From Candidatus Gastranaerophilales bacterium (GTDB lineage Bacteria > Cyanobacteriota > Vampirovibrionia > Gastranaerophilales > UBA9971): a stretch of DNA of 41,351 nt. Under the pieces are notes generated by a model. The model ran no database searches and was not told where the DNA came from. It saw only the letters and a program-made list of their open reading frames with translations. The stretch is from positions 1-41,351 of the forward strand of contig JANQEB010000012.1 in the NCBI GenBank assembly GCA_028278605.1, given 5' to 3'. The position numbers and the translations under genes were made by a program. This document shows, piece by piece, positions 6,780-41,351 of the stretch (position 1 is the first letter of the stretch; each line of letters begins with the position of its first letter).

Positions 6780-7223
6780 ATGGAAAATTTCAAAGGAAAA
6801 ATATTAAAGAAAGAAATTAAAACCTTTAACGTTGATCTTTTTGCACCTACTGAATATGTGAAGGACTATACTAAAAACCCCGGAAGACTAGCACACATTG
6901 TCAATGGTTGTGGAGCTGCTGGTGCTAAATTTGATTTTGTTCCGGACTCTATATATGGTTTATCGATTAAAGAAGCTTGTAACATTCATGACTATATGTA
7001 TCATGTAGGTGATAACTCAGAGGATAAAATAATATCAGACAGAGTTTTCTTTTATAATACAATAAGAATAATTGACGGAAATGGCGGTCCATTAAAACTA
7101 TTTAGAAAGTTAAGGGCGTTATGGTATTTTTTATCTGTCAATTTTTTTGGTGGTCCTGCTTATTGGAAGACTAAAAATGAAGCAGGTAATATTATAAAGG
7201 TTAAGATAGAAAGTAAATGGTAA
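6780..7223 (+). CDS. Phospholipase A2-like protein (prokaryotic/secreted PLA2 His-Asp motif)
   Basis: 'NGCGAAG' Gly-rich loop, 'ACNIHDYMY' (CxxHDxxY catalytic motif), then 'DKIISDRVFFYN' and a C-terminal 'W.Y...V.FFG', in the order seen in PLA2 families. Confidence 0.45.
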   Translation: MENFKGKILKKEIKTFNVDLFAPTEYVKDYTKNPGRLAHIVNGCGAAGAKFDFVPDSIYGLSIKEACNIHDYMYHVGDNSEDKIISDRVFFYNTIRIIDGNGGPLKLFRKLRALWYFLSVNFFGGPAYWKTKNEAGNIIKVKIESKW

Positions 7224-7231
7224 ATAAGGTA

Positions 7232-7548
7232 ATGACAAATAAGCCAATGACAAGCAAGACAATTATAATCTTTATTCTTTGCCTGTTCATTAATGGTTTA
7301 TTCTTTGCCTGTTCATTAATGGTTGTGGATGGTTCAACATTCCTACAACTATTGAAAAACCAAATGGTCTAAAATATAAAGTTTCAAGCAAGTCTGATAG
7401 TACAGTTGAATATGTAGCTGAAGATAAGGATGGAAATAAAATTACAATTAGAGTTGATAATTCAGGTAGACCAAATCTTTTAGAATCATTTGTTACAGCA
7501 GTACTTGTAATGCTTAAAGATACAACTGTAAAAATAGAAGATGATTAA
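7232..7548 (+). pseudogene. Putative lipoprotein gene disrupted by a 26-bp tandem duplication
   Basis: The frame from ATG 7232 stops at 7370-7372. Removing one 26-bp repeat copy restores a single ORF to TAA 7546-7548 with an 'IILFILCLFINGC' lipobox-like N-terminus. Confidence 0.6.
7271..7322. repeat. Perfect 26-bp tandem duplication 'tttattctttgcctgttcattaatgg' x2
   Basis: 7271-7296 is identical to 7297-7322. The length is not a multiple of 3. Confidence 0.95.
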
Positions 7549-7559
7549 AAAGTTTTGTC

Positions 7560-7940
7560 ATGGATGACTGGATATTAAATGGAGTACAAAAAATCATGTC
7601 ATCAATAACTTTTAGTCCTGATATATTAACAAGTCTTTTATCAAATGCTTTTATTCTTTTTTTAATAGGCTATATTATTAGAAGGGGAGATACTAGGATA
7701 ACAACTCTTGATGATAAGAAAGCAGATGAAGCACAGTGTCTCTTAAAGCATAAAGGCGTAGAAAAGGATTTAAAACGTGGTGAAAAAAAGTTTGAAGCTA
7801 TAATGGAGACTCAAGAAGTTATAAAAGCGCATCTGTCAGATCAATCTCAATATATTGCTTTAATGCGTCAATCAATTGAAGCTATAGAAAAACATATTGA
7901 AGAAGAAGTCAACATAAACAAAAAGGGGAGTGGTGATTAA
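7560..7940 (+). CDS. Membrane protein with one TM helix and a charged coiled-coil tail (holin- or spanin-like candidate)
   Basis: TM segment 'LLSNAFILFLIGYII'. The alternative start ATG 7596 has a 'ggag' upstream. Confidence 0.4.
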   Translation: MDDWILNGVQKIMSSITFSPDILTSLLSNAFILFLIGYIIRRGDTRITTLDDKKADEAQCLLKHKGVEKDLKRGEKKFEAIMETQEVIKAHLSDQSQYIALMRQSIEAIEKHIEEEVNINKKGSGD

Positions 7941-9415: not shown

Positions 9416-10030
9416 ATGCAAGGCTATGATATGGAAAACGCAAAAACTGGTATTTTAGATTCCTACAAGTGGGACAAAGTTAAAAAGGAATATGCATCTA
9501 TTGTTATTGAAAGCCTGTTAAAACATTTACCATCTATAAAAAGTGCTCATGACTTTGGTTGTGGTACTGGGATATATATTGAAGAGTTATTGAAGCATAA
9601 AGTAAAGGTAACTGGTTTTGATTTGAGTCCGAATGCTTTTTATGAAGCAAAAACAAATATGGACAACATACATCAAATAGATGTATCAGGACAAATACCA
9701 GAAGATTTTAAAATGCGTGATTTAAGTTTAGCAATAGAGGTATCAGAACATATACCACCACAAAGAGTACAATTGTTTATAGAAAATTTATGCAATTTAT
9801 CTTCTAAATATATCTTTATGACATCGACAAATAAACCAGGTAAGTACCATTTAAATCCGCAACCAAAAAAATACTGGATAAAAAAAATTGAAGATATCGG
9901 TACACATTATCATTCGCCAACTTTATCAAATGAATTAATGGAGATATATAAAAAATCAATTCCTGACAAGCATGGTTTATTATGGTTTAAATATGACCTT
10001 ATGATTTTTATTAGGAATTTAAGAGTATGA
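9416..10030 (+). CDS. Class I SAM-dependent methyltransferase
   Basis: Motif I 'DFGCGTGIYIEEL' and post-I 'VTGFDLS'. No DNA-MTase DPPY/PCQ motifs seen. Confidence 0.65.
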   Translation: MQGYDMENAKTGILDSYKWDKVKKEYASIVIESLLKHLPSIKSAHDFGCGTGIYIEELLKHKVKVTGFDLSPNAFYEAKTNMDNIHQIDVSGQIPEDFKMRDLSLAIEVSEHIPPQRVQLFIENLCNLSSKYIFMTSTNKPGKYHLNPQPKKYWIKKIEDIGTHYHSPTLSNELMEIYKKSIPDKHGLLWFKYDLMIFIRNLRV

Positions 10031-10366: not shown

Positions 10367-10384
10367 TTATATGGTACGATATGA
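10367..10384. promoter_or_regulatory. 18-bp motif variant (TTATATGGTACGATATGA) overlapping the glycosyltransferase start codon
   Basis: 16 of 18 match. Confidence 0.55.
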
Positions 10385-11427
10385 CAATTAATAAGAACAA
10401 GTACACTGTTTTGTCAATTGAAAATTCCTATGTATGGTCATGGTCTTTTGGTCTTATAGCCTTGAAGGATGTTATGGATTATGATTTTATTCGAATTAAA
10501 AGAATACCAGCATGTAGAATTCCTATTGATTTGGTGAAATACTTTGATATAACATTATTACAAAACCTTGATACAATAAAACAGATTCAAAGTGATTATA
10601 AAAAGGTAATTGCAAGGATAGGGGGAATGGTGATTGATGACAAGAATAAAGCTGACAGACATAATTTAGCACTTAACAAAGTAGGTGCTGTGATTGCCAC
10701 CAATAATCAGTTATATGAAATAGGAAAGACTGTTAATGGTAAGACTTTTTTAATCCCAAATGGCGTAGACCTTGATTTGTTTTATCCCAAAGAAAAGAGT
10801 CCATACCAGAAAGATCAAAGGGAAAATTTTACTGTTGGTTTTGCTGGTAATATATGGGGACCGGGACAAATATATAAAGGATGGAATTATTATTCTAAAG
10901 CAATTGATAGATTGATAGGTGAAGTTGATCATTATGAGGTACTCTTTGATTATAACCAGCTTGAACATGATGATATGCCAGAAAAGTTTTTTCATAAAAT
11001 TGATTGTTTAATATTACCATCTAAAGGTGAAGGTTGTTCGAATATAACAATGGAAGCTTTGGCGTGTGGTGTTCCGGTTCTTACAACAAAAGTAGGTTTT
11101 CATGGTGAAATGTTAAAAAATGGTGTTGATTGTCTTTTTATAGAACGAAATGTTGCTGACATAGTTGAAAAGGTTTTAAAGCTAAGAGGCAGCAAGAAGC
11201 TTCAAGAAACACTGTCTAAAAATGGTCGTGAGTTTGCAGAAAAAAACCATGACATAAGAATGATAGCAAGGATGTATGATCAAGTTTTTAAAACAGTTTT
11301 AAATAATACACGTAGAAAAGTAAATCGTGAAGCAAATGAAAGATTGGCTGAAAATAAAAGATTAAAAAGCAAAAAGAAAAGAAGACGCAAGATAAATAAA
11401 TTTGATGGTAAATCAAGAGTTAAATAA
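10381..11427 (+). CDS. Glycosyltransferase, GT-B fold (GT4 / glycos_transf_1-like)
   Basis: 'LPSKGEGCSNITMEALACGVPVLTT' is the canonical EX7E region. Lys/Arg-rich C-terminal tail. Confidence 0.7.
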   Translation: MTINKNKYTVLSIENSYVWSWSFGLIALKDVMDYDFIRIKRIPACRIPIDLVKYFDITLLQNLDTIKQIQSDYKKVIARIGGMVIDDKNKADRHNLALNKVGAVIATNNQLYEIGKTVNGKTFLIPNGVDLDLFYPKEKSPYQKDQRENFTVGFAGNIWGPGQIYKGWNYYSKAIDRLIGEVDHYEVLFDYNQLEHDDMPEKFFHKIDCLILPSKGEGCSNITMEALACGVPVLTTKVGFHGEMLKNGVDCLFIERNVADIVEKVLKLRGSKKLQETLSKNGREFAEKNHDIRMIARMYDQVFKTVLNNTRRKVNREANERLAENKRLKSKKKRRRKINKFDGKSRVK

Positions 11428-12929: not shown

Positions 12930-14837
12930 ATGGCTATTGATGCAGGTTCTTTGGTAGCACATGTTGTCAGTGATATAGGCGGTCTTACAAGCGGTTTAAA
13001 AAAAGGTGCTCTCCAAATAAAGCAGTTTTCTGCTGAAACAAATACAAGTTTAAAATCATGGACTGAAACAAACAAGGCACAATTTAAAGCCCTTGGAGTT
13101 GCTGTTGGTGCGTTTGCGGTAGCAGCAGGTATAGCATTAAAAAAGGTATCAGGTGAAGCAATCAAGGCAGCTTCAGACCTTGAAGAAACTACAGCAAAAT
13201 TTGTAACTGTTTTTGGTAGTCAAGCTGAAGAAATGGACAAGGTGACTCAGGAGTTAAGAAAAGGTTATGCTATGTCCACAGAAGAAGCACGAAAAAATTT
13301 AGCAGCCGTTCAAGATTTGCTTGTTCCTATGGGAATGAATAAAAAAGAAGCTGCTGGCCTTTCTTCAGAAATTGTTAAACTAACAGCAGATTTAGGTTCT
13401 TTTAACAATTTACCAACAGCAGATGTGATGCGTGATGTTCAGAGTGCTCTTACTGGTGAATTCCAAACTATGAAAAAATATGGTGTTGTCTTGAATGCTG
13501 CCAATGTAGAACAGGAAGTATTTAATCTTGGACTAGCAAAGACAAAGGATGATATAACCGCAGCCGACAAAGCACAAGCAGCATATAACTTAGTTGTTAA
13601 AGGTTCACAAGCTGCTATCGGTGACATGTCCCGCACTCAAGATAGTTATGCTAATGTAACAAAGAAAACACAAGCACTTCAGAAAGACTTTCTTGCTGCA
13701 CTTGGTAAACAATTTTTGCCAATGGCAACACAGGCAAAGCAAAAATTAATTGAGTGGGCTGAAGCTTCAGGTGGTGTGGGTGAAAAGGCACGTACAGTAG
13801 CTATTTTTATAGTTCAAGGAATGAAAGCTATTACAAATGCTTTTCAAGGTTTTAAAATTTTAGGTGAAGCAGCTATATTGTCAGTAGCCGTAAGAATTGA
13901 AAAGTTTTTAGTGCCATTAAGCTTAATGCTTGATGGTCTTCAAAAGATTGGTGTTATAGACTTTAATCCTTTAACATTGTTTGTAGAGTCAGCTAAAGAA
14001 GGATTAAGAGAAACAGTTGAAGAGACTGAAGCCCTTAACGAAAAGTTTGACAATCTAATATCAACCTTAAGAACAGCTAAAGAAGAGAATGTATTTAAAA
14101 TAAAGCCAGCCATTGAAGGTGAAGATGACGAAGGGGACGAAGACGGTGTTGACAAAGCAATGAAATTCTTAACAGGTGCTACTGTTTCCGAATTTGAAGA
14201 AGCTTTATTAACCTGGGATGGTATAAAACAAACTTTTGCTGACAGTGAATTAGTAAGAGCTGAAGAAGCTGTACGAACTGCTAAAACGTCTGAAGAAAAA
14301 AAGATAGCTATACAAAAAGGTGCAGCAACATTAGCAGCTACCACAGCACAAAATCTTACAAAAATATTAGGTAAAGAATCCAAAGCAGCTTTTCTTATTA
14401 TGCAAGCTGCAAAGGTAGCCGAATCGATTGTTAATGCCTGGGCTGCACATAACCTTGCACTAGCGGTTATTCCACCACCTTTTAATATTGCAGTAGCAAA
14501 TGTTGTTCTAGGTATCGGTCTTGCAGCAGCAGCAACAGAAGCAGCCGTTGGCATACAGGGCTTTCAAGAAGGTGGCGTAACTTTAGGTGCTGGTAGGCAA
14601 GATACTATAGGTCCGGCTATGCTTAGACCAAATGAAGTTATAGCACCATTAGAAAAGCTGCCAGACCTTATACCCAAAATAGTAGTGCCAGGACTTGCAG
14701 AAGGTGCAACAACTGGAAAAGGTGAAATAAATATAACGTTTAGTAACTATGGTAACATCAGGACCGAACAAGACAAAGACGCATTATTTCAAGAAATGGC
14801 AGACATGATAATTGAAAATGTACGTGGTGAAATATAA
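12930..14837 (+). CDS. Tape measure protein
   Basis: 635 aa, Ala-rich, helical, with hydrophobic segments, located after the G/GT pair. Confidence 0.85.
   Translation: MAIDAGSLVAHVVSDIGGLTSGLKKGALQIKQFSAETNTSLKSWTETNKAQFKALGVAVGAFAVAAGIALKKVSGEAIKAASDLEETTAKFVTVFGSQAEEMDKVTQELRKGYAMSTEEARKNLAAVQDLLVPMGMNKKEAAGLSSEIVKLTADLGSFNNLPTADVMRDVQSALTGEFQTMKKYGVVLNAANVEQEVFNLGLAKTKDDITAADKAQAAYNLVVKGSQAAIGDMSRTQDSYANVTKKTQALQKDFLAALGKQFLPMATQAKQKLIEWAEASGGVGEKARTVAIFIVQGMKAITNAFQGFKILGEAAILSVAVRIEKFLVPLSLMLDGLQKIGVIDFNPLTLFVESAKEGLRETVEETEALNEKFDNLISTLRTAKEENVFKIKPAIEGEDDEGDEDGVDKAMKFLTGATVSEFEEALLTWDGIKQTFADSELVRAEEAVRTAKTSEEKKIAIQKGAATLAATTAQNLTKILGKESKAAFLIMQAAKVAESIVNAWAAHNLALAVIPPPFNIAVANVVLGIGLAAAATEAAVGIQGFQEGGVTLGAGRQDTIGPAMLRPNEVIAPLEKLPDLIPKIVVPGLAEGATTGKGEINITFSNYGNIRTEQDKDALFQEMADMIIENVRGEI
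14193..14249 (+). repeat. 57-bp segment of the tape measure gene with a perfect inverted copy at 20540..20596
   Basis: I derived the reverse complement base by base and it is identical to 20540-20596. Confidence 0.95.
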
Positions 14838-14852
14838 CAGGGAAAAATAACA

Positions 14853-15647
14853 ATGGAAAGAATGAAGATAGTGAAAGACGCTTTTGAGTATTCATTAGGC
14901 TATGCCTTTACATTGCGTGACAATAATTTTACTGTACGGTCTAAAATGCAAAAGCGTGCTTTTCAAGATGGTGGTCTTGATATTTCTGATGGTAGAATTG
15001 ATTTTAGAACTATTCGAATTATGGGAATGATACAAGGCACAAGTCGATCTAATTATCTTACTAACATTCGTGCATTTGAGACAGCTATCAATAAACGTGA
15101 TTATCAATTATTTTTTGGAGACCCTGCAACATATGATCATTATGTTAACATAGAAAAACCTTTAAAGATTCGTGTTACTCCAATTGAAGGGCAAGACTAT
15201 GAAGCTTCAATGATAAGAGCTTCATTGTTAGCTGCTGATCCTTATTGGTATTATAAAACAGATGACGACACAACCATAACAGTTGATTCAAGTCCTAAGT
15301 CTGGAACGGTGGCAAACAATGGCAATGTAGATGCATATCCAGTCATAACAGTGACAGCAGATACAACCATAACTTCTTTACAGATTGAGAATGAAACGGA
15401 TGTACCTGAAGGTGAATCAGATGGTTTACAATTTACATATGCTGACAATGCTTTTTTTAATACTGATGAATTAATTATTGATTGTCAAGCTGGAACGGTT
15501 GAAAGGGAGTCATCAAATACCATAAGGTTTTTTGAAGGTGCTTTCTTAAAACTGTTACCAGGAAACAATACAATAACTGTTACCTGTCAGACTTCAGGCG
15601 CAACAACTGTTAAATTTGATTATGCTAAACGTTTCTTGTCACCTTAA
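14853..15647 (+). CDS. Distal tail protein (Dit / siphovirus tail family)
   Basis: 264 aa, first gene after the tape measure gene. Confidence 0.55.
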   Translation: MERMKIVKDAFEYSLGYAFTLRDNNFTVRSKMQKRAFQDGGLDISDGRIDFRTIRIMGMIQGTSRSNYLTNIRAFETAINKRDYQLFFGDPATYDHYVNIEKPLKIRVTPIEGQDYEASMIRASLLAADPYWYYKTDDDTTITVDSSPKSGTVANNGNVDAYPVITVTADTTITSLQIENETDVPEGESDGLQFTYADNAFFNTDELIIDCQAGTVERESSNTIRFFEGAFLKLLPGNNTITVTCQTSGATTVKFDYAKRFLSP

Positions 15648-15651
15648 TATA

Positions 15652-15680
15652 AGAGGTAATTGAATCTGAGAGGTAATTGA
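15652..15680 (+). repeat. 12-bp direct repeat 'agaggtaattga' x2 (17-bp period) containing the SD for GTG 15682
   Basis: 15652-15663 and 15669-15680 are identical. Confidence 0.9.
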
Positions 15681-15681
15681 C

Positions 15682-16896
15682 GTGACGGCTTTTACAAACA
15701 ATCCTTCATATCATGGTTATATACATTTAGGTTCAGGGTATTTAGGTGGTTATGCACCTGTTTATAATCGGCCTGATTATCCTTTGACAGATGGATACAA
15801 TATAATTTTTTATGATAGGGCAGGTCAAAAGGTAGCTGAAATTTCAAGCCAGATTCAAAACACTGTATTGTTAGATTGTTTTTTTGAATTGCTACCTACT
15901 GGTTGCGGTACTTTTCAAATGAAGTTGAGAGGCTTGACAAATGCACTTGAAGATTTAACTTATAATTATAGAATTGACATACATCCTTTTAATGATATTA
16001 ATCCCTGGTATTCAGGATATATAATTGAAAAACCTTTAGCTGGTGACACTTCAAACATCTATACGATTAAAGGCTATGGATATTTTAACCAATTAAAAGA
16101 TATCATGATTGAAGATGACTTTACAAGTGATAGGGTTGATGATATTGTTAAAAGTTTAATGACTTCAGATGTTGAAGATAAAACAGACATAATTTATAAA
16201 GAAATTCGAATTGAAGAAGCAGACTATGTTGTTCAATCTATTTCATGGCAGCATGTTACAGCTAAAGAGGTTATGAAGCAGTTAAGTGAATTAATGTTAG
16301 GTTATGAATTTGGAGTTAATGAATTTAGACAATTTTTCTTTAGACCAAAAGTAACAACCATTCAAGATGAAGCTCAATTATTTGTGGGTAAGCATGTTAA
16401 AAAATTTATACCTAAAGAAAACATTGATAAAGTAAGAAATAGGCTTCACATCTATGGTGGTGAAGTTACCGGTACACCACCTTCTAATTATGTAGCAACA
16501 GTTGAGGATACAGACTCACAAGATACTTATGGATTAAGAGAGGCTAAGTTAACGATTCCATCTGTTTTAGATGCTACTGATGCTGAACAGTGGGGAGATT
16601 TTAAATTGGCAGAATTAAAAGATGCTGAACAATCAGCACGAATTGATGGTGTTGACATAAATATTAAAAAGAAAAAAATAGATGCAAGAGGCAATGCTCG
16701 AATTACTTCAGATGACGGACTAAACGAGTATACATTACCAATTAAAAGTGTGCGATATACGATTAATGCTGATGGTGTAACAGCACGTGTTCAGCTTGGA
16801 AAAAAGGATAAATTGTTTACAGAACTGCAATTAGAACTTCAGCAAGAAATAATTACACAAGAACAGCTAGGAGATCAAAGAGTTTCACAATCATAA
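15682..16896 (+). CDS. Tail-associated protein (Tal / baseplate hub-like)
   Basis: 404 aa, GTG start with SD 'gagagg', synteny after Dit. Confidence 0.45.
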   Translation: MTAFTNNPSYHGYIHLGSGYLGGYAPVYNRPDYPLTDGYNIIFYDRAGQKVAEISSQIQNTVLLDCFFELLPTGCGTFQMKLRGLTNALEDLTYNYRIDIHPFNDINPWYSGYIIEKPLAGDTSNIYTIKGYGYFNQLKDIMIEDDFTSDRVDDIVKSLMTSDVEDKTDIIYKEIRIEEADYVVQSISWQHVTAKEVMKQLSELMLGYEFGVNEFRQFFFRPKVTTIQDEAQLFVGKHVKKFIPKENIDKVRNRLHIYGGEVTGTPPSNYVATVEDTDSQDTYGLREAKLTIPSVLDATDAEQWGDFKLAELKDAEQSARIDGVDINIKKKKIDARGNARITSDDGLNEYTLPIKSVRYTINADGVTARVQLGKKDKLFTELQLELQQEIITQEQLGDQRVSQS

Positions 16897-16913
16897 AATA
16901 GAAAGGTAAAAAA

Positions 16914-18611
16914 ATGACATCAAGCATTGATCATGAAAACGACATTAATGAAGACAAGATCGATATTCGCTTTGACCCTTTTACAGAATCGGATGACAGT
17001 GTTGCTATAACTGGCGAATCACATGTTATACCAGGTGCAAGCCCTTATTATATCCAATTAAATGAAGTGCCAAAGGAAGACACACCATCTCTTACAGCTA
17101 TTCGAAAGATAGGGCAGCTAGATGAAGACCTTGACGATTCTGAAACTGGTGTTGATGTAGTGCGTGGTGCAGACTGGGCTGTTGATGATGTTTTTGCAAT
17201 TGATAGCGAAAAGATGCAGGTAACAAATGTTGTTAGCAACACTTTAACCGTTACACGTGGATATGACAGCACGACTCCTGCTGCGCACAATCAATATGAA
17301 AATGTTGAGACTGGCACATTATCTGATGATGGTTCAAATGTAAGAGCACAAGATGATACAAAAGACTTTGTTGATGAAGGTGTTAAAGAAGGTGATATAT
17401 TCGAGAACACAACAAATAGTCAAACAGCTACTATTACTGGTATTAGAACAACCACAAATAAAAATGATACACTATGCTTTTCTACTGGCACTGCTACTTC
17501 AAACGATAATGGTGATTCATATGTTGTAAAACGGCCTAGACTTTTAATTGATGATAGTGATTTTACAGAGGTATTTACCGCACCTTCAGCCGGTGAATAT
17601 GAAGTACATTATGGTACTGCTGATGTTCCTTACAAGCGTGGTTTAATCCGCTTCCATGAAGATGATAAAGATAAAACTATGCAATGTGATTACACTAAAA
17701 CAGGGCACTATAATTGGGCTGAGTTTATAAATGATATTCAAGATGCTCTTAGAAGTCGTTTTTATGGTTATGATTTAAGACCTGAAATTATAACAAATGA
17801 GCATTTGCAAGATAATATAATAGAGCATGATCAGATGTCAAATAATGCTATTCATCAAGCAGAGCTTTATACTACAACTGCTGAAGTAAACACAAGTTCA
17901 TCTAATAATTTAACTTTGACAGGTGGTACATACATTTTTTATCCACAAGTGAAAACACAAAATACCGGTGCCATTACATTTGATTCACGACTAGCTAATT
18001 ATGCTAGCAATCCACCTGTTTCATATGTTTCTAATGTTTATTTATCTGCTAGCTCTGGATTGGCATATGCTCAAGCAAGGTACGTAAGGTCGTCAGGTCA
18101 TATAAATTGGTATTATCTTTTAAGAGATGTAAAAACTAAAAAGATTATAGCTTCATCAATTGCTAAAGATCATCCATGTTATGGCAATGGTGGCAAGCCC
18201 GAGCTAATGCAGCATCCTTTTTTAAGTGTCTATACTGTAAATAATAAGCAATACATTGGTGATGACATAAATATTATAGAGGTTGAAATTCTTGTACACA
18301 ATCTTAGTGATGAAATGTATATTTATTGTGTTGATGAATCTGTTATAGCTGATAATTTGATACCAGATAAATCAATACTTGAAATTCTTAGTAGTAATTT
18401 TATTTTGGATGATAATGATCAACCTGAATGGCCTAAGGACGAAGTTATTGTAGGTTTGCCCAGACATGCTATAAATGAAAATGGTGAAAAAGAAGTTATT
18501 GAGGATTGGACAAAGGAATATTATCAAGGTAGAAACTTGTTGATAGAACCAATAAAAAGGGAAATCATTCAACCTAGCCATATTAAAACAATTGGTATAA
18601 AAGAAAGGTAG
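16914..18611 (+). CDS. Putative receptor-binding protein / tail fibre
   Basis: 565 aa, last large structural gene, Asp/Thr/Asn-rich. Confidence 0.4.
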   Translation: MTSSIDHENDINEDKIDIRFDPFTESDDSVAITGESHVIPGASPYYIQLNEVPKEDTPSLTAIRKIGQLDEDLDDSETGVDVVRGADWAVDDVFAIDSEKMQVTNVVSNTLTVTRGYDSTTPAAHNQYENVETGTLSDDGSNVRAQDDTKDFVDEGVKEGDIFENTTNSQTATITGIRTTTNKNDTLCFSTGTATSNDNGDSYVVKRPRLLIDDSDFTEVFTAPSAGEYEVHYGTADVPYKRGLIRFHEDDKDKTMQCDYTKTGHYNWAEFINDIQDALRSRFYGYDLRPEIITNEHLQDNIIEHDQMSNNAIHQAELYTTTAEVNTSSSNNLTLTGGTYIFYPQVKTQNTGAITFDSRLANYASNPPVSYVSNVYLSASSGLAYAQARYVRSSGHINWYYLLRDVKTKKIIASSIAKDHPCYGNGGKPELMQHPFLSVYTVNNKQYIGDDINIIEVEILVHNLSDEMYIYCVDESVIADNLIPDKSILEILSSNFILDDNDQPEWPKDEVIVGLPRHAINENGEKEVIEDWTKEYYQGRNLLIEPIKREIIQPSHIKTIGIKER

Positions 18612-18619
18612 GTAAAAAA

Positions 18620-19069
18620 ATGATAAAGCCAATAAAACTTTTTAGACTAGAAAGAGATGGTTATGCTACATTTGGTTCGTTGATTATTGAAAACAAATTA
18701 ATTTGTAATACCCTAGAGCTTCCCTGGTTAAATAATATACCGTTTAAATCCTGTGTGCCCATTGGATGTTATAAGCTGGCTATACGTACAAAGTGGAAGC
18801 ATTCAGATGATTATGGACACACGTTTGAATTGAAAGGTGAAGGTGTAAAAGACCGGCCTGGATGTTTGATTCATCCTGCTAATTGGCCCTATCAACTGCA
18901 TGGATGTATAGCACCTGGTCATGCTATTGGTGACTTATCTGGTAAGCGTGCAATCAAAGACAGTCGGAATGCATTCTTTAAAGTCATTAATGCTATTAAA
19001 GAAATACCATTTGAAACTATTGGTGGTAATGTAACCAACATCCCTTTCGTAATTACAGATCATAGTTAA
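18620..19069 (+). CDS. DUF5675-like protein, candidate cell-wall hydrolase (lysin position)
   Basis: 'ATFGSLII...CNTLELPW.NN...SCVPIGCY' and 'GCLIHPANW...LHGCIAPG' match my recollection of DUF5675. It is the last gene of the late block. Confidence 0.45.
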   Translation: MIKPIKLFRLERDGYATFGSLIIENKLICNTLELPWLNNIPFKSCVPIGCYKLAIRTKWKHSDDYGHTFELKGEGVKDRPGCLIHPANWPYQLHGCIAPGHAIGDLSGKRAIKDSRNAFFKVINAIKEIPFETIGGNVTNIPFVITDHS

Positions 19070-19087
19070 CTATATAGTACGATATAA
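19070..19087. promoter_or_regulatory. 18-bp motif, AGTACG class (CTATATAGTACGATATAA)
   Basis: 17 of 18 match. Lies immediately after the stop of the last late gene. Confidence 0.75.
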
Positions 19088-19092
19088 AAAAG

Positions 19093-19130
19093 TAGCATTC
19101 AGAAAAAAATAAAGGATGCTATCTTTTTTT
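19093..19130 (+). terminator. Intrinsic terminator ending the late operon
   Basis: Stem 19093-19100 'tagcattc' with 19114-19121 'ggatgcta', 13-nt A-rich loop, then 'tcttttttt'. Confidence 0.7.
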
Positions 19131-19131
19131 C

Positions 19132-19162
19132 TTGACATCTAATTAATTGTGTGCACAATTAA
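19132..19162 (+). promoter_or_regulatory. Sigma70-like early promoter with an overlapping 20-bp palindromic operator
   Basis: 'ttgaca' at 19132-19137. Palindrome 'ttaattgtg tg cacaattaa' at 19143-19162 covers the -10 region. Confidence 0.55.
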
Positions 19163-19204
19163 AATCACGTTAACAAAAAAAACAGATGACAGCAAACAGA
19201 CAAC

Positions 19205-19222
19205 TTAGATAGTACGATATAA
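19205..19222. promoter_or_regulatory. 18-bp motif, AGTACG class (TTAGATAGTACGATATAA)
   Basis: 17 of 18 match. Ends 4 nt before ATG 19227, which has no SD. Confidence 0.75.
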
Positions 19223-19226
19223 AAAA

Positions 19227-19430
19227 ATGCCAAGAAGAAAACAAAGTGAAAAAAAATATGATGATAGGTTTAATATCAGAACTTATAAAACTTTTAAAGA
19301 CCAGGTAAGAGAAGCAGCGGAAAAAGAAGGTCTTTCCGTTTCAGGGTTTATTACAAATGTTTTACATATGGCATTAGATGTAGAAATAAAAAAGGCTACA
19401 GCTAAAAAGAAGGCAAAGGTAGTTCATTGA
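19227..19430 (+). CDS. Ribbon-helix-helix (CopG/Arc-like) transcriptional regulator
   Basis: Beta strand 'RFNIRT' followed by two helices, 'KTFKDQVREAAEKEG' and 'SVSGFITNVLHMAL'. First gene after the promoter/operator. Confidence 0.65.
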   Translation: MPRRKQSEKKYDDRFNIRTYKTFKDQVREAAEKEGLSVSGFITNVLHMALDVEIKKATAKKKAKVVH

Positions 19431-19451
19431 TAACAAGGACATCGGGCACGG

Positions 19452-20444
19452 ATGACAAAGAAGATAAAAACTTGTGATTTTAGAATCACTAATCATAGCA
19501 GAAAGTGTGACCATTATATTGAAGGTAAAATAGATGGTCTAGGCAATGAGCTTGAAGCAGGGTTTTGCAGATTGCCAAAAGAATTTAGATGTATTGAATC
19601 CTTAAAACATCACCTTCCCAGGGTTAGCCATTCATCAAGAAAATCTTTTATTCAATGCAGGATGAAGTATTATTACAACCAGATCGAAGGTCGTGTATTG
19701 TTGCCACACAGGCAAACAGATGCTATTAAAGCAGGTGCGATATGGGATAAGTTTCTTGAACTAAAACATGAAGGCAAGCCGACTAAAGAAACCATTCATA
19801 AATTATTTGTCAAATATAAAGTAAGTCCTGTTCTTGAAGCCAAACTAACCGCAATCATAAAGGCATACATCACACTTGAAATAGAACACAATGAACCGAA
19901 CCTGGTGAACTGCCAGCATGAATTTGTATATCCTATTTATGATGTAATTACTTATGGGAAAATTGATCGTGCATATATTGAAAGTTTTACAGAATCCAAA
20001 TTAACCACAAACCCTGACTTTCATAGAAAACTTCATTATCTTCAGGCACAGCTATCTACATATTTTTTGTCAAATGAAAATTATAAAAGCTGTATAGTTG
20101 AGATAGTTAAAATGCATAAAGGCAAACCAAAGGCTAACGAGTCTGTTGAAAGTTTTCAGAAGAGATTATACCATAGCTATATAGCCAGACCTAAAAGCGT
20201 TTTTTTAGAATACAAAGAAGAAACTAAAACATTTGGGTATAAGTTCTGGCGTACTGAATTTGATTTGCCACAAATTTTAAGGACATATGAAATTGTAAAC
20301 CGTGACATATCAAGAGCTATTAAAAATAATGAATGGTATAGAAATGATTTAGCATGTCATGTACCTACTGATTGTGAGTATTTGCATAGGTGTGATACTG
20401 GTAGTTTTAGTAAAATGCTGTATGGGTATAAAGATAAACATTAA
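19452..20444 (+). CDS. PD-(D/E)XK nuclease, Cas4/RecB-like, with Cys cluster
   Basis: 'GKIDRAYIESFTESKLT' gives the D...E.K motif. C-terminal 'CHVPTDCEYLHRC' plus N-terminal Cys residues. Confidence 0.6.
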   Translation: MTKKIKTCDFRITNHSRKCDHYIEGKIDGLGNELEAGFCRLPKEFRCIESLKHHLPRVSHSSRKSFIQCRMKYYYNQIEGRVLLPHRQTDAIKAGAIWDKFLELKHEGKPTKETIHKLFVKYKVSPVLEAKLTAIIKAYITLEIEHNEPNLVNCQHEFVYPIYDVITYGKIDRAYIESFTESKLTTNPDFHRKLHYLQAQLSTYFLSNENYKSCIVEIVKMHKGKPKANESVESFQKRLYHSYIARPKSVFLEYKEETKTFGYKFWRTEFDLPQILRTYEIVNRDISRAIKNNEWYRNDLACHVPTDCEYLHRCDTGSFSKMLYGYKDKH

Positions 20445-20459
20445 TAAAGAGGTAAAAAC

Positions 20460-20717
20460 ATGGATTTAATTTTAAAGTTAAACGATAGGGAAAAACAAAT
20501 AATTAAAAATTTTATATCAAAAGAACTTGAATATACTTTTTCACTGTCAGCAAAAGTTTGTTTTATACCATCCCAGGTTAATAAAGCTTCTTCAAAATCT
20601 TCAGAATCTTCAAGGGCTAGAGAAGACCTTGAGTATAAAGAGATGTTTGAATATATAGATAGTCTTGTTGGCAAGGCTTATGTTTTTGAAAAAAAAATTT
20701 ATGGTATCAAAACATAG
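20460..20717 (+). CDS. Small hypothetical protein carrying an in-frame 102-bp insert that contains the tape-measure antisense segment
   Basis: RBS 'aaagagg'. Residues 'FSLSAKVCFIPSQVNKASS' are encoded by the reverse complement of tape-measure codons. Confidence 0.45.
   Translation: MDLILKLNDREKQIIKNFISKELEYTFSLSAKVCFIPSQVNKASSKSSESSRAREDLEYKEMFEYIDSLVGKAYVFEKKIYGIKT
20540..20596 (-). repeat. Perfect 57-bp inverted copy of tape measure segment 14193..14249
   Basis: 57 of 57 bases identical to the reverse complement. Flanked by imperfect direct repeats 'cttgaatata' (20526) and 'cttgagtata' (20628), 102 bp apart. Confidence 0.95.
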
Positions 20718-20752: not shown

Positions 20753-21550
20753 GTGACTATGGACGTACTAACCTTAAAAGATTTTTCCTCAGATGGTGTA
20801 ATGATATTTTTGTATGGTGAAACAAACGTAGGTAAGTCAACCAGTATATTACAATCGGCGCCTGACCCTATTTTTTATGCAATGGGAGAATTGAGAAATC
20901 CAAAGAAAGTACTTGAAGCTGTTAACAGACCAGGTTTAAAAATTAGATTTGGTCACTATAAAAATTGGCTTGACTTTATGGACTTCTTGGCACAACCAGA
21001 AAAACTTAATCCCTACAAATCCCTTATTATCGATAGCATGACTCAATTTATGGGATTGCTATCGATTGAGATCGAAAATGAAACCTTCCAAGCTTTAGGC
21101 AAAAAGAAACAAGTAAAGAAAACTTTATCACGGCAAACAAAAAAAGATTATTCAGGGTGGGGCGGTCTTGCCAGTCAAACACTTAGACTAACAAAACTGC
21201 TTGGCAAATTATCGCAGATACACGGTAAGATAATCATTTGTACAGCATTAGAGACAGAGCGTCCTAAGTGGGATTTAGAGCTTGCAGCAGCACCTAAGTT
21301 GAGTGGACGTGATTATGCTGAATCGATGCCTGAGAATTTTGATCTTATCGGGCGTGTAACTTCAAGATATAAGAAATGCGTCAATGAAGATGGCTGTATA
21401 ATTCCTGATGAATACAGAATAGTTTATCCACCCATGGTAAGCTTTGAGTGTGACGATCCTGATAGAAAGTTCATGGCTAAATATACTGGTGGTGGTGACA
21501 AAAGGAAGGGACCGTTAAATATTTCAAAGATATTAGAAAGTAAGAAGTAA
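20753..21550 (+). CDS. RecA-fold AAA ATPase (Sak4-like recombination ATPase)
   Basis: Walker A 'GETNVGKST' and Walker B-like 'LIIDSM'. ATG 20759 is the more likely start. Confidence 0.6.
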   Translation: MTMDVLTLKDFSSDGVMIFLYGETNVGKSTSILQSAPDPIFYAMGELRNPKKVLEAVNRPGLKIRFGHYKNWLDFMDFLAQPEKLNPYKSLIIDSMTQFMGLLSIEIENETFQALGKKKQVKKTLSRQTKKDYSGWGGLASQTLRLTKLLGKLSQIHGKIIICTALETERPKWDLELAAAPKLSGRDYAESMPENFDLIGRVTSRYKKCVNEDGCIIPDEYRIVYPPMVSFECDDPDRKFMAKYTGGGDKRKGPLNISKILESKK

Positions 21551-23067: not shown

Positions 23068-23078
23068 AATTTATAATT

Positions 23079-23096
23079 TTATATCGTACTATATAA
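23079..23096. promoter_or_regulatory. 18-bp motif, CGTACT class (TTATATCGTACTATATAA)
   Basis: Exact. Followed by an A-run, RBS and ATG 23111. Confidence 0.8.
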
Positions 23097-23110
23097 AAAA
23101 AGAGGATAAC

Positions 23111-23389
23111 ATGAATCAAAAGACAAGAATAAACCGAAAGTCGAAAAAGAAAAGATTTATTTCATCACCAACAAGTAAGCCTATGGAATTAACTGTTCAA
23201 GAATTTATGGACCTTGAAAACAGGTCTTGTGAAGCATGTGGACATGAATATTTTAAAAAGCGCACTATTGCAAAATTGTTACCCATGACACATCCTTCAA
23301 ATAATACTGGTGAAGCAATACCATTTACACTGGAAGTATATATTTGTGATAAGTGTCATGCTAAACAGGAAAAATTAAAAGTAGTATAA
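23111..23389 (+). CDS. Hypothetical zinc-ribbon protein
   Basis: CxxC ... CxxC pairs ('CEACGH', 'CDKCH'). RBS 'agagga'. Confidence 0.5.
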   Translation: MNQKTRINRKSKKKRFISSPTSKPMELTVQEFMDLENRSCEACGHEYFKKRTIAKLLPMTHPSNNTGEAIPFTLEVYICDKCHAKQEKLKVV

Positions 23390-27582: not shown

Positions 27583-27591
27583 AAACAATCG

Positions 27592-27723
27592 TTGATATAT
27601 TGACATATTGATACTTTGATATTTTGATTTATTGATATTATGATACATTGATACTTTGATTTTAATATAGGGATAATTGATAATTGTCATATTGATATTA
27701 TGATGTGTTGATACTTTGATGCC
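27592..27723 (+). repeat. Array of TTGATAnn-type octamers with an exact 8-bp period (iteron/operator-like)
   Basis: TTGAT/TTGAC/ATGAT cores start at 27592, 27600, 27608, 27616, 27624, 27632, 27640, 27648 and 27656, then at 27677, 27692, 27700, 27708 and 27716. A 29-bp block at 27632-27660 recurs at 27692-27720. Confidence 0.9.
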
Positions 27724-29231: not shown

Positions 29232-30140
29232 ATGACAACTGATACTATCGAAATTTTAACCATCACAAAACTAAAAGATCTTAAATCGTACAATACAAAA
29301 ATATTGCTTGCCAAATATAATGAGTTGGCAGAACGTCCAATTAAAGCGGTCAAGACATCAAGAAAAGAATTTTGTAAAAGACTGCTTTCGTTAATCCTTG
29401 AAAAAAACAATAAGGCACGATCAAGGGCAGCATCTTCAGACAAAGACAAAACTAAAAACAAAGACAGTAAACCTAAAACCACAGATGAATCAAAGACAGT
29501 TTCGATATCTACTGATTCGATAGGAGAATATAAAGAACTTGATCGTGCCTTTAAATTCTACAATGAAAGATTATTCAAGGGCGCACTGCCTGATACCATT
29601 ATCTCTTTACGTGGGCGCAAATCATGTAATGGTTTTTTTCGTGCTCAATCATTTAAATCAAGAGAAAACGAAGAGGTTGAACCAGATGAAATAGCAATGA
29701 ACCCTGAACACTTCAGCCGGTCGATTGAAGAAATCTTGTCAACCCTGGTACATGAGATGGTACACAGTTGGCAATTTCATTGTGGTAAAAAAAAGAAGGT
29801 AACAAAATATCATAACAAAGAATGGGCTGAACAAATGGAGCTAGTTGGTCTTGTTCCTTCTGTTACTGGTGCTGAAGGTGGTAAGAAGACCGGGCAAAGC
29901 ATGACGCATTATATTGAAGAAGGCGGTATCTTTGAAACAGTAACCGCTGAACTCCTTAAGTCAGGTCTCAATCTTAAATGGGTAAGACTTCAAAATTTAA
30001 CCAAGACAAAAAAATCTAAAGTAAAATACACTTGTCCTGATTGCGACCAGAACGCATGGGCTAAACCTGATGCAGTATTAAGATGTGGCTTATGCTGTGA
30101 TGATATGGGAGAAGCTGTTTTGATGAAATCTGAAGAATAG
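29232..30140 (+). CDS. SprT-like zinc metalloprotease domain protein (ArdC-C-terminal-like)
   Basis: 'LVHEMVHSWQ' (HExxH) and 'YHNKEWAEQMELVGL'. C-terminal CxxC...CxxC. ATG 29232 with RBS 'agaaagg' is preferred over the track start 29160. Confidence 0.6.
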   Translation: MTTDTIEILTITKLKDLKSYNTKILLAKYNELAERPIKAVKTSRKEFCKRLLSLILEKNNKARSRAASSDKDKTKNKDSKPKTTDESKTVSISTDSIGEYKELDRAFKFYNERLFKGALPDTIISLRGRKSCNGFFRAQSFKSRENEEVEPDEIAMNPEHFSRSIEEILSTLVHEMVHSWQFHCGKKKKVTKYHNKEWAEQMELVGLVPSVTGAEGGKKTGQSMTHYIEEGGIFETVTAELLKSGLNLKWVRLQNLTKTKKSKVKYTCPDCDQNAWAKPDAVLRCGLCCDDMGEAVLMKSEE

Positions 30141-30143
30141 ATT

Positions 30144-30161
30144 TTATATCGTACTATATAA
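30144..30161. promoter_or_regulatory. 18-bp motif, CGTACT class (TTATATCGTACTATATAA)
   Basis: Exact. Followed by an A-run, RBS and ATG 30179. Confidence 0.8.
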
Positions 30162-30178
30162 AAAAAAGGAGAACAAAA

Positions 30179-31491: not shown

Positions 31492-31902
31492 GTGGCTTAC
31501 ACAGCATGGACCGGGCACACATCAAAAAAAACAATGATAGAATACATTCAAAATATAGCACCACCTGCAAACTTAAATACAACTGCCGAAATGTTTATTG
31601 TTATGCATCGGCTTTACAAACATATAAGGATAGATAAAAATGATTGTTGGAATTTTGAAGGTCTCTTGGTTAATGGCTATGGTCGTATTAGCGTTGATAA
31701 CAAAAAATACCGCAGCCATAGGTTATCTTATGCTATTTTTCATATAGATGAAGATATAAGCAATAAGGTAATTTTACATACCTGTGACAATCCGTCTTGT
31801 ATAAATCCTTCTCATTTAAGAAGCGGTACACAAAGAGAAAATATACAAGACTGTATTAATAAAGGTAGGTTTAGTTTCAATTTGGGTAATCTTAAAAGGT
31901 AG
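31492..31902 (+). CDS. HNH homing endonuclease (HNH_3-like)
   Basis: 'NGYGRISVDNKKYRSHRLSY' and 'HTCDNPSCINPSHL'. The start is uncertain (GTG 31492 or ATG 31534). Confidence 0.8.
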   Translation: MAYTAWTGHTSKKTMIEYIQNIAPPANLNTTAEMFIVMHRLYKHIRIDKNDCWNFEGLLVNGYGRISVDNKKYRSHRLSYAIFHIDEDISNKVILHTCDNPSCINPSHLRSGTQRENIQDCINKGRFSFNLGNLKR

Positions 31903-37897: not shown

Positions 37898-38128
37898 ATG
37901 TATGACTGTGTACAATATTTTAACTTCATGAAGCGTGGTATTTATGGGACACAGTTTGTAGTAGAGCAGTATGAGTTCTCAAAATACTATTCTGCTGGTG
38001 CTTATTATGTTAGAAGAGGTGCAAAGTTTATTAAGTGTTTCAATTGCAGCACGGTATTTGTTGTTGTTAAGGCAGACCATGTTTGTCCATTCTGTCATAG
38101 CAATAATGAACTGAAGACTTTTATATAG
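37898..38128 (+). CDS. Hypothetical zinc-ribbon protein
   Basis: 'CFNC' ... 'CPFC'. Confidence 0.45.
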   Translation: MYDCVQYFNFMKRGIYGTQFVVEQYEFSKYYSAGAYYVRRGAKFIKCFNCSTVFVVVKADHVCPFCHSNNELKTFI

Positions 38129-38138
38129 TACGATATAA
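38121..38138. promoter_or_regulatory. 18-bp motif, AGTACG class (TTATATAGTACGATATAA)
   Basis: Exact. Overlaps the stop at 38126-38128, upstream of terL. Confidence 0.8.
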
Positions 38139-38220
38139 AAGCACAAAACAACCACAAACAAGACAACCACAAGGGCACGGACTACATGACAATGACAGTA
38201 ACATGTAGACAGGTATTACA

Positions 38221-41148: not shown

Positions 41149-41166
41149 TTATATCGTACTATTTAA
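41149..41166. promoter_or_regulatory. 18-bp motif, CGTACT class (TTATATCGTACTATTTAA)
   Basis: 17 of 18 match. First of a tandem pair 36 bp apart. Confidence 0.75.
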
Positions 41167-41184
41167 AACTATTTAAAATATTTC

Positions 41185-41202
41185 TTATATCGTACTGTAT
41201 AA
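41185..41202. promoter_or_regulatory. 18-bp motif, CGTACT class (TTATATCGTACTGTATAA)
   Basis: 17 of 18 match. Ends 10 nt before ATG 41213. Confidence 0.75.
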
Positions 41203-41212
41203 AGGTAAAACC

Positions 41213-41351
41213 ATGGCTACACCAAAGCAAAGATCATTAAATATTCAACGTGCTACAAAGAAAGCCAGGAAAAACTTTGATAAGTGGACTGAACAACAGT
41301 TAACCGATATCTACCTTATCTTTGATCAATCAGCAGATGAAATAGCAAAGC
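41213..41351 (+). CDS. Minor head / head morphogenesis protein (SPP1 gp7 / Mu F-like), 5' part; continues at base 3 of the window
   Basis: ATG at 41213 preceded by 'aaaggt'. The frame maps through the 99-bp overlap onto the frame of 210..1022 with no stop. The full gene would be 1062 nt on the circular map. Confidence 0.7.
   Translation, partial: MATPKQRSLNIQRATKKARKNFDKWTEQQLTDIYLIFDQSADEIAK
41253..41351. repeat. Terminal direct repeat, copy 2 (identical to 1..99)
   Basis: Exact 99-bp identity with the window start. Confidence 0.95.

Follow-up and report, generated by a model that had tools for sequence, protein, structure and literature searches.

An exact inverted copy of a tape measure gene segment inside a small orphan phage gene, possibly placed there by templated insertion

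The locus considered here raises the question of how a small accessory gene of a phage came to carry, in antisense, an exact piece of the tape measure gene of the same genome, and whether this piece serves any function in its new location. The window, i.e., the whole stretch of 41,351 nt that was analysed, is a circularly assembled phage genome of ~41.25 kb, in which positions 1-99 recur at 41253-41351 (a 99-nt overlap). The ORF listing places all of the credible genes of this window on the + strand, in agreement with the single-strand layout described in an earlier note on this DNA, and the features needed for the argument are as follows.

12930-14837, + strand: tape measure protein gene, 635 aa, the donor (tblastn, homologue count and SPP1_Dit directly downstream)
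14193-14249, + strand: donor segment, codons 422-440, FEEALLTWDGIKQTFADSE (exact 57-mer; +0.71 bit/codon)
19227-19430, + strand: Arc-like regulator, first gene of its module
19452-20444, + strand: exonuclease-like gene, upstream neighbour (PHROG 1218 exonuclease, E=3.9e-6)
20460-20717, + strand: 85-aa orphan ORF hosting the copy (coding-like flanks; Shine-Dalgarno-like AAAGAGG)
20523-20535, + strand: left 13-nt imperfect direct repeat, gaacttgaatata (11/13 against 20625-20637; weakly significant at best)
20540-20596, - strand (the tape-measure-sense strand): inverted copy of the tape measure segment (57/57; the + strand mRNA carries the antisense)
20589-20615, + strand: 9-nt tandem repeat TCTTCAAAA/TCTTCAGAA/TCTTCAAGG, read as SSK-SSE-SSR in the ORF frame, spanning the right junction
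20625-20637, + strand: right 13-nt imperfect direct repeat, gaccttgagtata (11/13 against 20523-20535)
20759-21550, + strand: Sak4-like single-strand annealing protein (AAA_24), downstream neighbour (PHROG 124, E=6.5e-15; PF13479)
Downstream of the Sak4-like gene: DNA polymerase exonuclease-like, SbcC-like and other genes

The segment at 20540-20596 is the exact reverse complement of 14193-14249, with identity at all 57 of 57 positions, and this pair is the longest inverted repeat of the genome, which the repeat search extends to 66 nt at 95% when the flanks are included. The earlier note had reported an exact antisense copy that could not arise by chance in 41 kb, and both statements hold, given that the 57-mer match was found in none of 100 dinucleotide shuffles and that the longest exact inverted repeat in each of 10 shuffled genomes was only 14-20 nt. 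Chance is thus ruled out as the source of the repeat. The edges of the copy are sharp and the flanks are unrelated, as an anchored extension of the alignment into either flank gave homology at the random level (P=0.35). An old duplicate homogenised by gene conversion, which would be surrounded by decayed homology, was rejected on this same result. A search for a second source of the rest of the small ORF by blastn-short within the genome returned none, and the length of the copy, whether it is taken as 57 nt or as 48 nt, is a multiple of three.

The direction of the transfer can be read from the two genes involved. The ORF at 12930-14837 has 27,062 homologues in a representative library, and its residues 77-334 match annotated tape measure proteins by tblastn among the best phage database matches, by which it is identified as the tape measure gene; the donor segment lies within this confirmed coding sequence, as the earlier note had stated. 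The coding character of each part was scored as a codon-usage log-likelihood trained on 28 long genes of this phage, with the following results.

57-mer, tape measure frame: +0.71 bit/codon
57-mer, small-ORF frame: -0.04 bit/codon
Left flank of the copy in the small ORF, ORF frame: +0.50 bit/codon
Right flank of the copy in the small ORF, ORF frame: +0.62 bit/codon
Rest of the proposed 102-bp insert, ORF frame: about +0.41 bit/codon
Real genes, 25-codon windows, own frame: 0.41 ± 0.21 bit/codon
Antisense windows: -0.64 ± 0.54 bit/codon

Among the tape measure homologues, the closest is P0013 (53% identity), encoded on a syntenic 44-kb contig (L008); its residues ESFEEQKTAF..EQFVDG align with SEFEEALLTWDGIKQTFADSE at the donor segment. 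Both its codon usage and the homologous residues in P0013 thus mark the segment as native to the tape measure gene, which is identified as the donor of a piece that was copied, inverted, into an otherwise coding-like small gene. The C-terminal half of the tape measure protein, used as a query for homologues, retrieved no sequence, itself included, and that search is hence uninformative.

The recipient is the third gene of the Arc/exonuclease/Sak4 module, which follows a terminator-like hairpin and a TTGACA promoter-like site (19132); the position given for the ORF in the earlier note is confirmed. The hairpin, which has a T-run, and the TTGACA-16-CACAAT site that directly follows it (19085-19160) mark off the tail/DUF5675 module from the Arc/exonuclease/Sak4 module. 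The AAAGAGG lies a few nt before the ATG of the small ORF. In a search of 5.8 billion protein clusters this ORF retrieved no protein other than its own, and it has no Pfam or PHROG family; with the insert removed, it still has no Pfam match, and its PHROG matches are found only at E 0.05 or worse. The copy encodes residues 28-46 of the 85-aa protein (SLSAKVCFIPSQVNKASSK). The protein was modelled by AF2 from its single sequence, at low confidence (mean pLDDT 64), as a helix at residues 9-34, a loop and a second helix at 50-81, and the loop (residues 33-47, pLDDT <50) is covered by the antisense-encoded residues, which are thus predicted to form a tolerated linker between the two helices.

Similarity of the small ORF to tape measure proteins in the sense direction was also considered. 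The small ORF at 20460-20600 is 34% identical over 47 aa to positions 11165-11305 of L008, a stretch that directly precedes the counterpart of the 57-mer (residues 389-435 of the L008 tape measure protein; tblastn E=0.014-0.036, P about 0.002 against shuffles). No sense similarity was found to the tape measure protein of the phage itself (P about 0.7-0.99), and the similarity to L008 was set aside as probably a chance likeness between charged, Lys/Glu-rich helices.

The slot between the exonuclease-like and Sak4-like genes is a variable one, according to the sequences of five distant relatives (L004-L008, at 32-49% protein identity). The exonuclease-like gene is kept beside Sak4 in these relatives, at 32-46% identity, and the two genes abut directly in L004, L005 and L007, leaving the slot empty; it holds an unrelated Cys-rich 81-aa ORF in L006, and unrelated ORFs of 76 and 162 aa in L008. 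These relatives lack the whole small ORF. A comparable inverted repeat was found in neither of the large loci scanned, which in L008 spans the tape measure gene to Sak4 and in L004 covers the early module, without an identified tape measure gene.

Closer relatives that might show the allele before the insertion were sought in several collections, and none was found. Blastn against INPHARED gave no close relative, and Sak4 peptide-pattern scans of IMG/VR and the JGI metagenomes yielded no close one. The exact 57-mer was not found in IMG/VR, and a degenerate pattern for the first 17 residues of the 19-aa peptide matched nothing in IMG/VR, the JGI metagenomes or the GTDB genomes. Nine phage proteins looked up at 90% identity were all singletons among about 15 billion proteins, and the closest relatives in the collections searched are ~47% identical, with none above about 50% protein identity. 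One of the relatives, L004 (a contig of JGI 3300045741), encodes at 2514-2723 a protein of the Acb2/Tad1-hairpin family, the anti-CBASS/anti-Thoeris sponge family, of which no counterpart was noticed in the window.

Other features of the window deserve mention in their own right. A near-palindromic 20-nt motif, TTTATATAGTACGATATAAA (reverse complement TTTATATCGTACTATATAAA), occurs in about ten copies and in both orientations, at 2904-2924, 10367-10400, 19071-19091, 19205-19224, 23078-23098, 29273-29299, 30143-30163, 38119-38140, 41149-41168 and 41185-41203. Most of these copies lie in gaps directly 5' of genes, and the motif is probably an operator or a phage-specific promoter element, possibly bound by the Arc-like protein of 19227-19430. 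In a gap of the replication module, at 27590-27720, an iteron-like array of TTGATAnn with an 8-nt period (some 6-7 copies, plus one 60 nt downstream) is a likely origin of replication. The 92-aa protein of 23111-23389 shows a weak likeness to multihaem cytochrome c families, with NapB at E=1e-4 falling short of the Pfam cut-off; if real, this would be an unusual find in the replication module of a phage. A SAM-methyltransferase (9416-10030) and a group-1 glycosyltransferase (10381-11427) are placed between the genes for the head and those for the tail; they occupy the same place in the distant relative L008 (6174-6758 and 7379-8440) and hint at the glycosylation of the virion or of the host surface. 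In addition, a perfect 26-nt tandem duplication (TTTATTCTTTGCCTGTTCATTAATGG, two copies, 7271-7322) is found in a mechanical 51-aa ORF (7217-7372), within an otherwise unannotated stretch between a gene end at 7223 and a gene start at 7560, and is apparently another recent slippage-type event.

The extent of the foreign piece bears directly on its origin. The earlier note had placed the copy within a discrete acquired segment of 102 bp, bounded by near-identical direct repeats. The two 13-mers are indeed present, and the removal of 102 nt does leave a 51-aa ORF reading ...KELEYKEMFEYID..., and the notion of an acquired segment is upheld to the extent that the 57-mer codes in the tape measure frame, and not in that of the small ORF, while the ORF flanks are coding-like. 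The 102-bp unit itself fares poorly, given that a pair of 13-mers just as good encloses ~4% of the 57-nt anchors drawn at random from this genome, and that a divergence of 2/13 in the direct repeats cannot be reconciled with 0/57 in the core under one shared event (P ~7e-5). The part of the proposed insert outside the core, moreover, has native coding character in the ORF frame, and its remaining 28 nt have no other source in the genome. Given the lack of homology in the flanks, the weakness of the direct repeats and the native-like character of the remainder, we conclude that what was acquired is the 57-nt core (or 48 nt together with microhomology) rather than a 102-bp cassette.

The junctions of this shorter piece have a structure of their own. 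At the right junction, the 9-nt tandem repeat is described by TRF as an array of period 9 with 2.8 copies, 87% matches and a score of 43; arrays of an equal or better score number only about 20 in 41 kb, and the chance of such an array overlapping one given junction is estimated at ~2%. Its first unit takes in the final 8 nt of the core and one further base. The left end of the core, in turn, lies inside a run of five T; TTC is present at both 20540-42 and 20588-90, and TCTTCAAA lies within the tandem repeat.

We consider it somewhat more probable than all of the other explanations combined that the copy is a recent, lineage-specific templated insertion, without a selected function. In this reading, a nascent strand would have left the small accessory gene, during either replication or the repair of a double-strand break, taken on 48-57 nt by copying the other strand of the tape measure gene at a distance of 6.3 kb, and then switched back, probably through short microhomologies, that is, the TTC in the T-run on the left and TCTTCAAA in the tandem repeat on the right, which would make the tandem repeat a possible microhomology for the return switch. 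The ancestral ORF would then have read ...ACT TTT TCT TCA AAA TCT TCA GAA... (T F S S K S S E), with 48 nt placed between two TTC triplets by means of the microhomologies TTC and TTCAAA, and the insert-free allele expected under this post hoc model is ...ACTTTTTCTTCAAAATCTTCAGAA.... The absence of any divergence between the two copies points to recency, or else to continuing homogenisation. The phage encodes exonuclease/Sak4 recombination proteins and an HNH endonuclease (31492-31902) of its own, which makes breaks and strand exchange plausible, and these proteins may have taken part in the event.

The survival of such a patch could be explained by its form and its location. Being a multiple of three and stop-free in its frame, one of two open antisense frames, it would have left the gene readable, and it would sit between the two predicted helices of a small and dispensable orphan protein. 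Its consequences would include a Ser-rich loop of 19 residues in the protein, a stretch of 57 nt in the module mRNA that is able to pair with the tape measure mRNA, and a 57-bp inverted repeat through which an occasional inversion of 14250-20539 would be lethal to the genome; all of these are probably side effects rather than a selected function. The template-switch mechanism, the microhomologies and the recency of the insertion are what we infer from the structure of the locus, together with its neutrality, which is assumed, and the ancestry, recency and function of the copy are all read here from a single sequence.

Events of a comparable kind are known from other organisms. Quasipalindrome template-switch mutations in bacteria rely on a template no more than tens of bases distant, in contrast to the template proposed here, which is 6.3 kb away. 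Parallels may also be found in microhomology-mediated template switches (MMBIR/FoSTeS) and in templated insertions at double-strand breaks (e.g., PMC2621351, PMC11724301). The present case would resemble such events in being a short inverted segment from the same genome, with sharp boundaries and possible microhomologies of 3-8 nt, and here with neither a transposase nor a convincing target-site duplication. It would differ from them in that its setting is a phage genome, with the insertion fixed in the consensus, and in that its junction microhomologies are proposed from the sequence. By analogy, then, the event would best be filed as a further example of templated insertion or template switching, in this case in a phage.

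A similar arrangement may also be produced at the bench. The possibility that the copy is an artefact of the library or of the assembly, such as a double template switch in MDA that was over-amplified into the consensus, gains some weight from the fact that MDA chimeras typically join inverted sequences a few kb apart, which the orientation and the 6.3-kb distance resemble, and from the limited material, given that the phage is represented by one run (SRR20820740) and one deposited contig. The literature search found no paper linked to the run accession. A further assembly of this run was checked in the form of its Logan contigs (k=31), on which the exact proteins beside the repeat were located. 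Three of these contigs (L001-L003) agree with the window at every base and stop precisely 30 nt into each arm of the repeat, as a k=31 graph must at a repeat of 57 nt. One of them (L003) ends at 14222, the second (L002) covers 14220-20569 and runs through 20539/20540, and the third (L001) starts at 20567 and runs through 20596/20597, so that all four junctions are carried by read k-mers. The Logan contigs and the window probably derive from the same reads. The junction k-mers survive the abundance filtering and graph cleaning of the Logan assembly, in which no competing insert-free branch was kept after cleaning. The 99-nt closure overlap suggests, in addition, that the window was assembled at a k of about 99, in which case single reads would span the whole 57-mer together with both of its flanks. 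An artefact would also have had to produce two precise junctions that return to the same locus, in frame and stop-free. A 9-nt tandem repeat that looks like native coding sequence also adjoins the junction. Given all of this, an artefact at the level of the library is unlikely.

On the other hand, the copy may have been retained for what its transcript does. According to this reading, the mRNA that runs through 20540-20596 would pair in trans with the late tape measure mRNA, and the duplex would be cut by RNase III, which may either lower or delay the expression of the tape measure protein, of which a virion requires few copies, or allow the abundant late mRNA to shut off the recombination operon. 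The complementarity is perfect over 57 nt, with a duplex energy of -95.6 kcal/mol; both loci are transcribed from the same strand, with the ORF in a module that is preceded by a terminator-like hairpin and a promoter-like site, and the lack of any mismatch would fit selection for pairing, but this is explained equally well by recency. The copy region has no Rfam family, its local fold is no better than that of shuffles (z=-0.02), and its promoter-like and terminator-like sites are at the shuffle expectation, which marks out no discrete small RNA; the search for a tRNA in the region was also negative. The segment lies within a translated ORF, and its target is the middle of a coding sequence (codons 422-440) rather than a ribosome-binding site. 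The two scanned relatives (L008 and L004) lack a comparable repeat, and the slot is empty or filled with unrelated ORFs in all five.

The known antisense RNA regulators of phages, such as the c4 RNA of P1/P7 acting on ant, the CI RNA of P4, the sar of P22 and the OOP of lambda, are short, structured and dedicated RNAs that target ribosome-binding sites or nascent leaders and are conserved within their groups, and two of them, P1 c4 and P4 CI, act in trans at other sites of the phage genome. The present locus shares with these regulators a phage RNA complementary to another phage transcript, but the complement here is 57 nt long, perfect, unstructured and embedded in a coding region, its target is the mid-coding sequence of a structural gene, and the repeat is absent from the scanned relatives. 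Literature searches on the antisense regulation of tape measure genes in phages returned no title or abstract that describes such an arrangement. While some regulatory effect of so stable a duplex is plausible, a dedicated antisense module appears, from the sequence features considered, to be quite unlikely, more so than an artefact.

All further explanations, jointly, are fairly unlikely, and one of them, which is very improbable on its own, would have the 57-bp repeats serve as inversion sites for the 6.3-kb segment 14250-20539, through either a site-specific invertase or the Sak4/exonuclease system of the phage, with the inversion acting as a genetic switch. The inverted repeats do bracket a defined segment, with the copy lying between two recombination genes, and in this they recall the invertible segments of phages and plasmids (the G segment of Mu with Gin, the C segment of P1 with Cin, and the shufflons), in that a multi-kb segment with tail genes lies between inverted repeats. 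In contrast to these systems, no recombinase gene was found here, in that no ORF of at least 170 aa has a resolvase, invertase, integrase or reverse transcriptase domain, and the inversion would destroy the tape measure protein, rather than swap a C-terminus, by fusing its codon 440 to 32 junk codons (KVYSSSFDIKFL...PLY*). The tail, lysis-region and early genes would also be reversed, resulting in a defective genome, and only one orientation is present in the assembly.

Least probable of all is a minus-strand gene of 77 aa (20674-20441) that would carry the tape measure peptide FEEALLTWDGIKQTFADSE, e.g., as a decoy or assembly competitor, for while the minus-strand frame that keeps the phase of the tape measure codons runs for 77 codons without a stop, it begins with a TTG that lacks an upstream Shine-Dalgarno sequence, all of the other genes are on the + strand, and the residues on either side of the tape measure peptide are read from the strand opposite to good coding sequence. 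A diversity-generating retroelement was rejected outright: the presence of a short stretch of a structural gene as a non-native copy at a second place in the genome is reminiscent of the template repeat/variable repeat pairs of such elements, but no reverse transcriptase was found among the ORFs of at least 170 aa, there are zero mismatches and hence none at adenines, the copy is inverted, and the target is not a receptor-binding domain.

The meaning of the locus depends on which of these readings is true. In practical terms, a 57-bp inverted repeat breaks short-k assemblers, which the Logan contigs demonstrate directly. If the antisense reading were true, a regulator would have been born by the copying of a piece of its target gene into another operon, which would represent a new way for a phage to couple the expression of two gene modules. 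If, on the other hand, the copy is a templated insertion, as is favoured here, it would be a clean natural example of an inverted insertion of this type fixed in a phage genome, in which accessory genes in variable slots would gain coding sequence from the antisense strand of other genes, and it would thus bear on the raw material for phage mosaicism and for the emergence of new small proteins.
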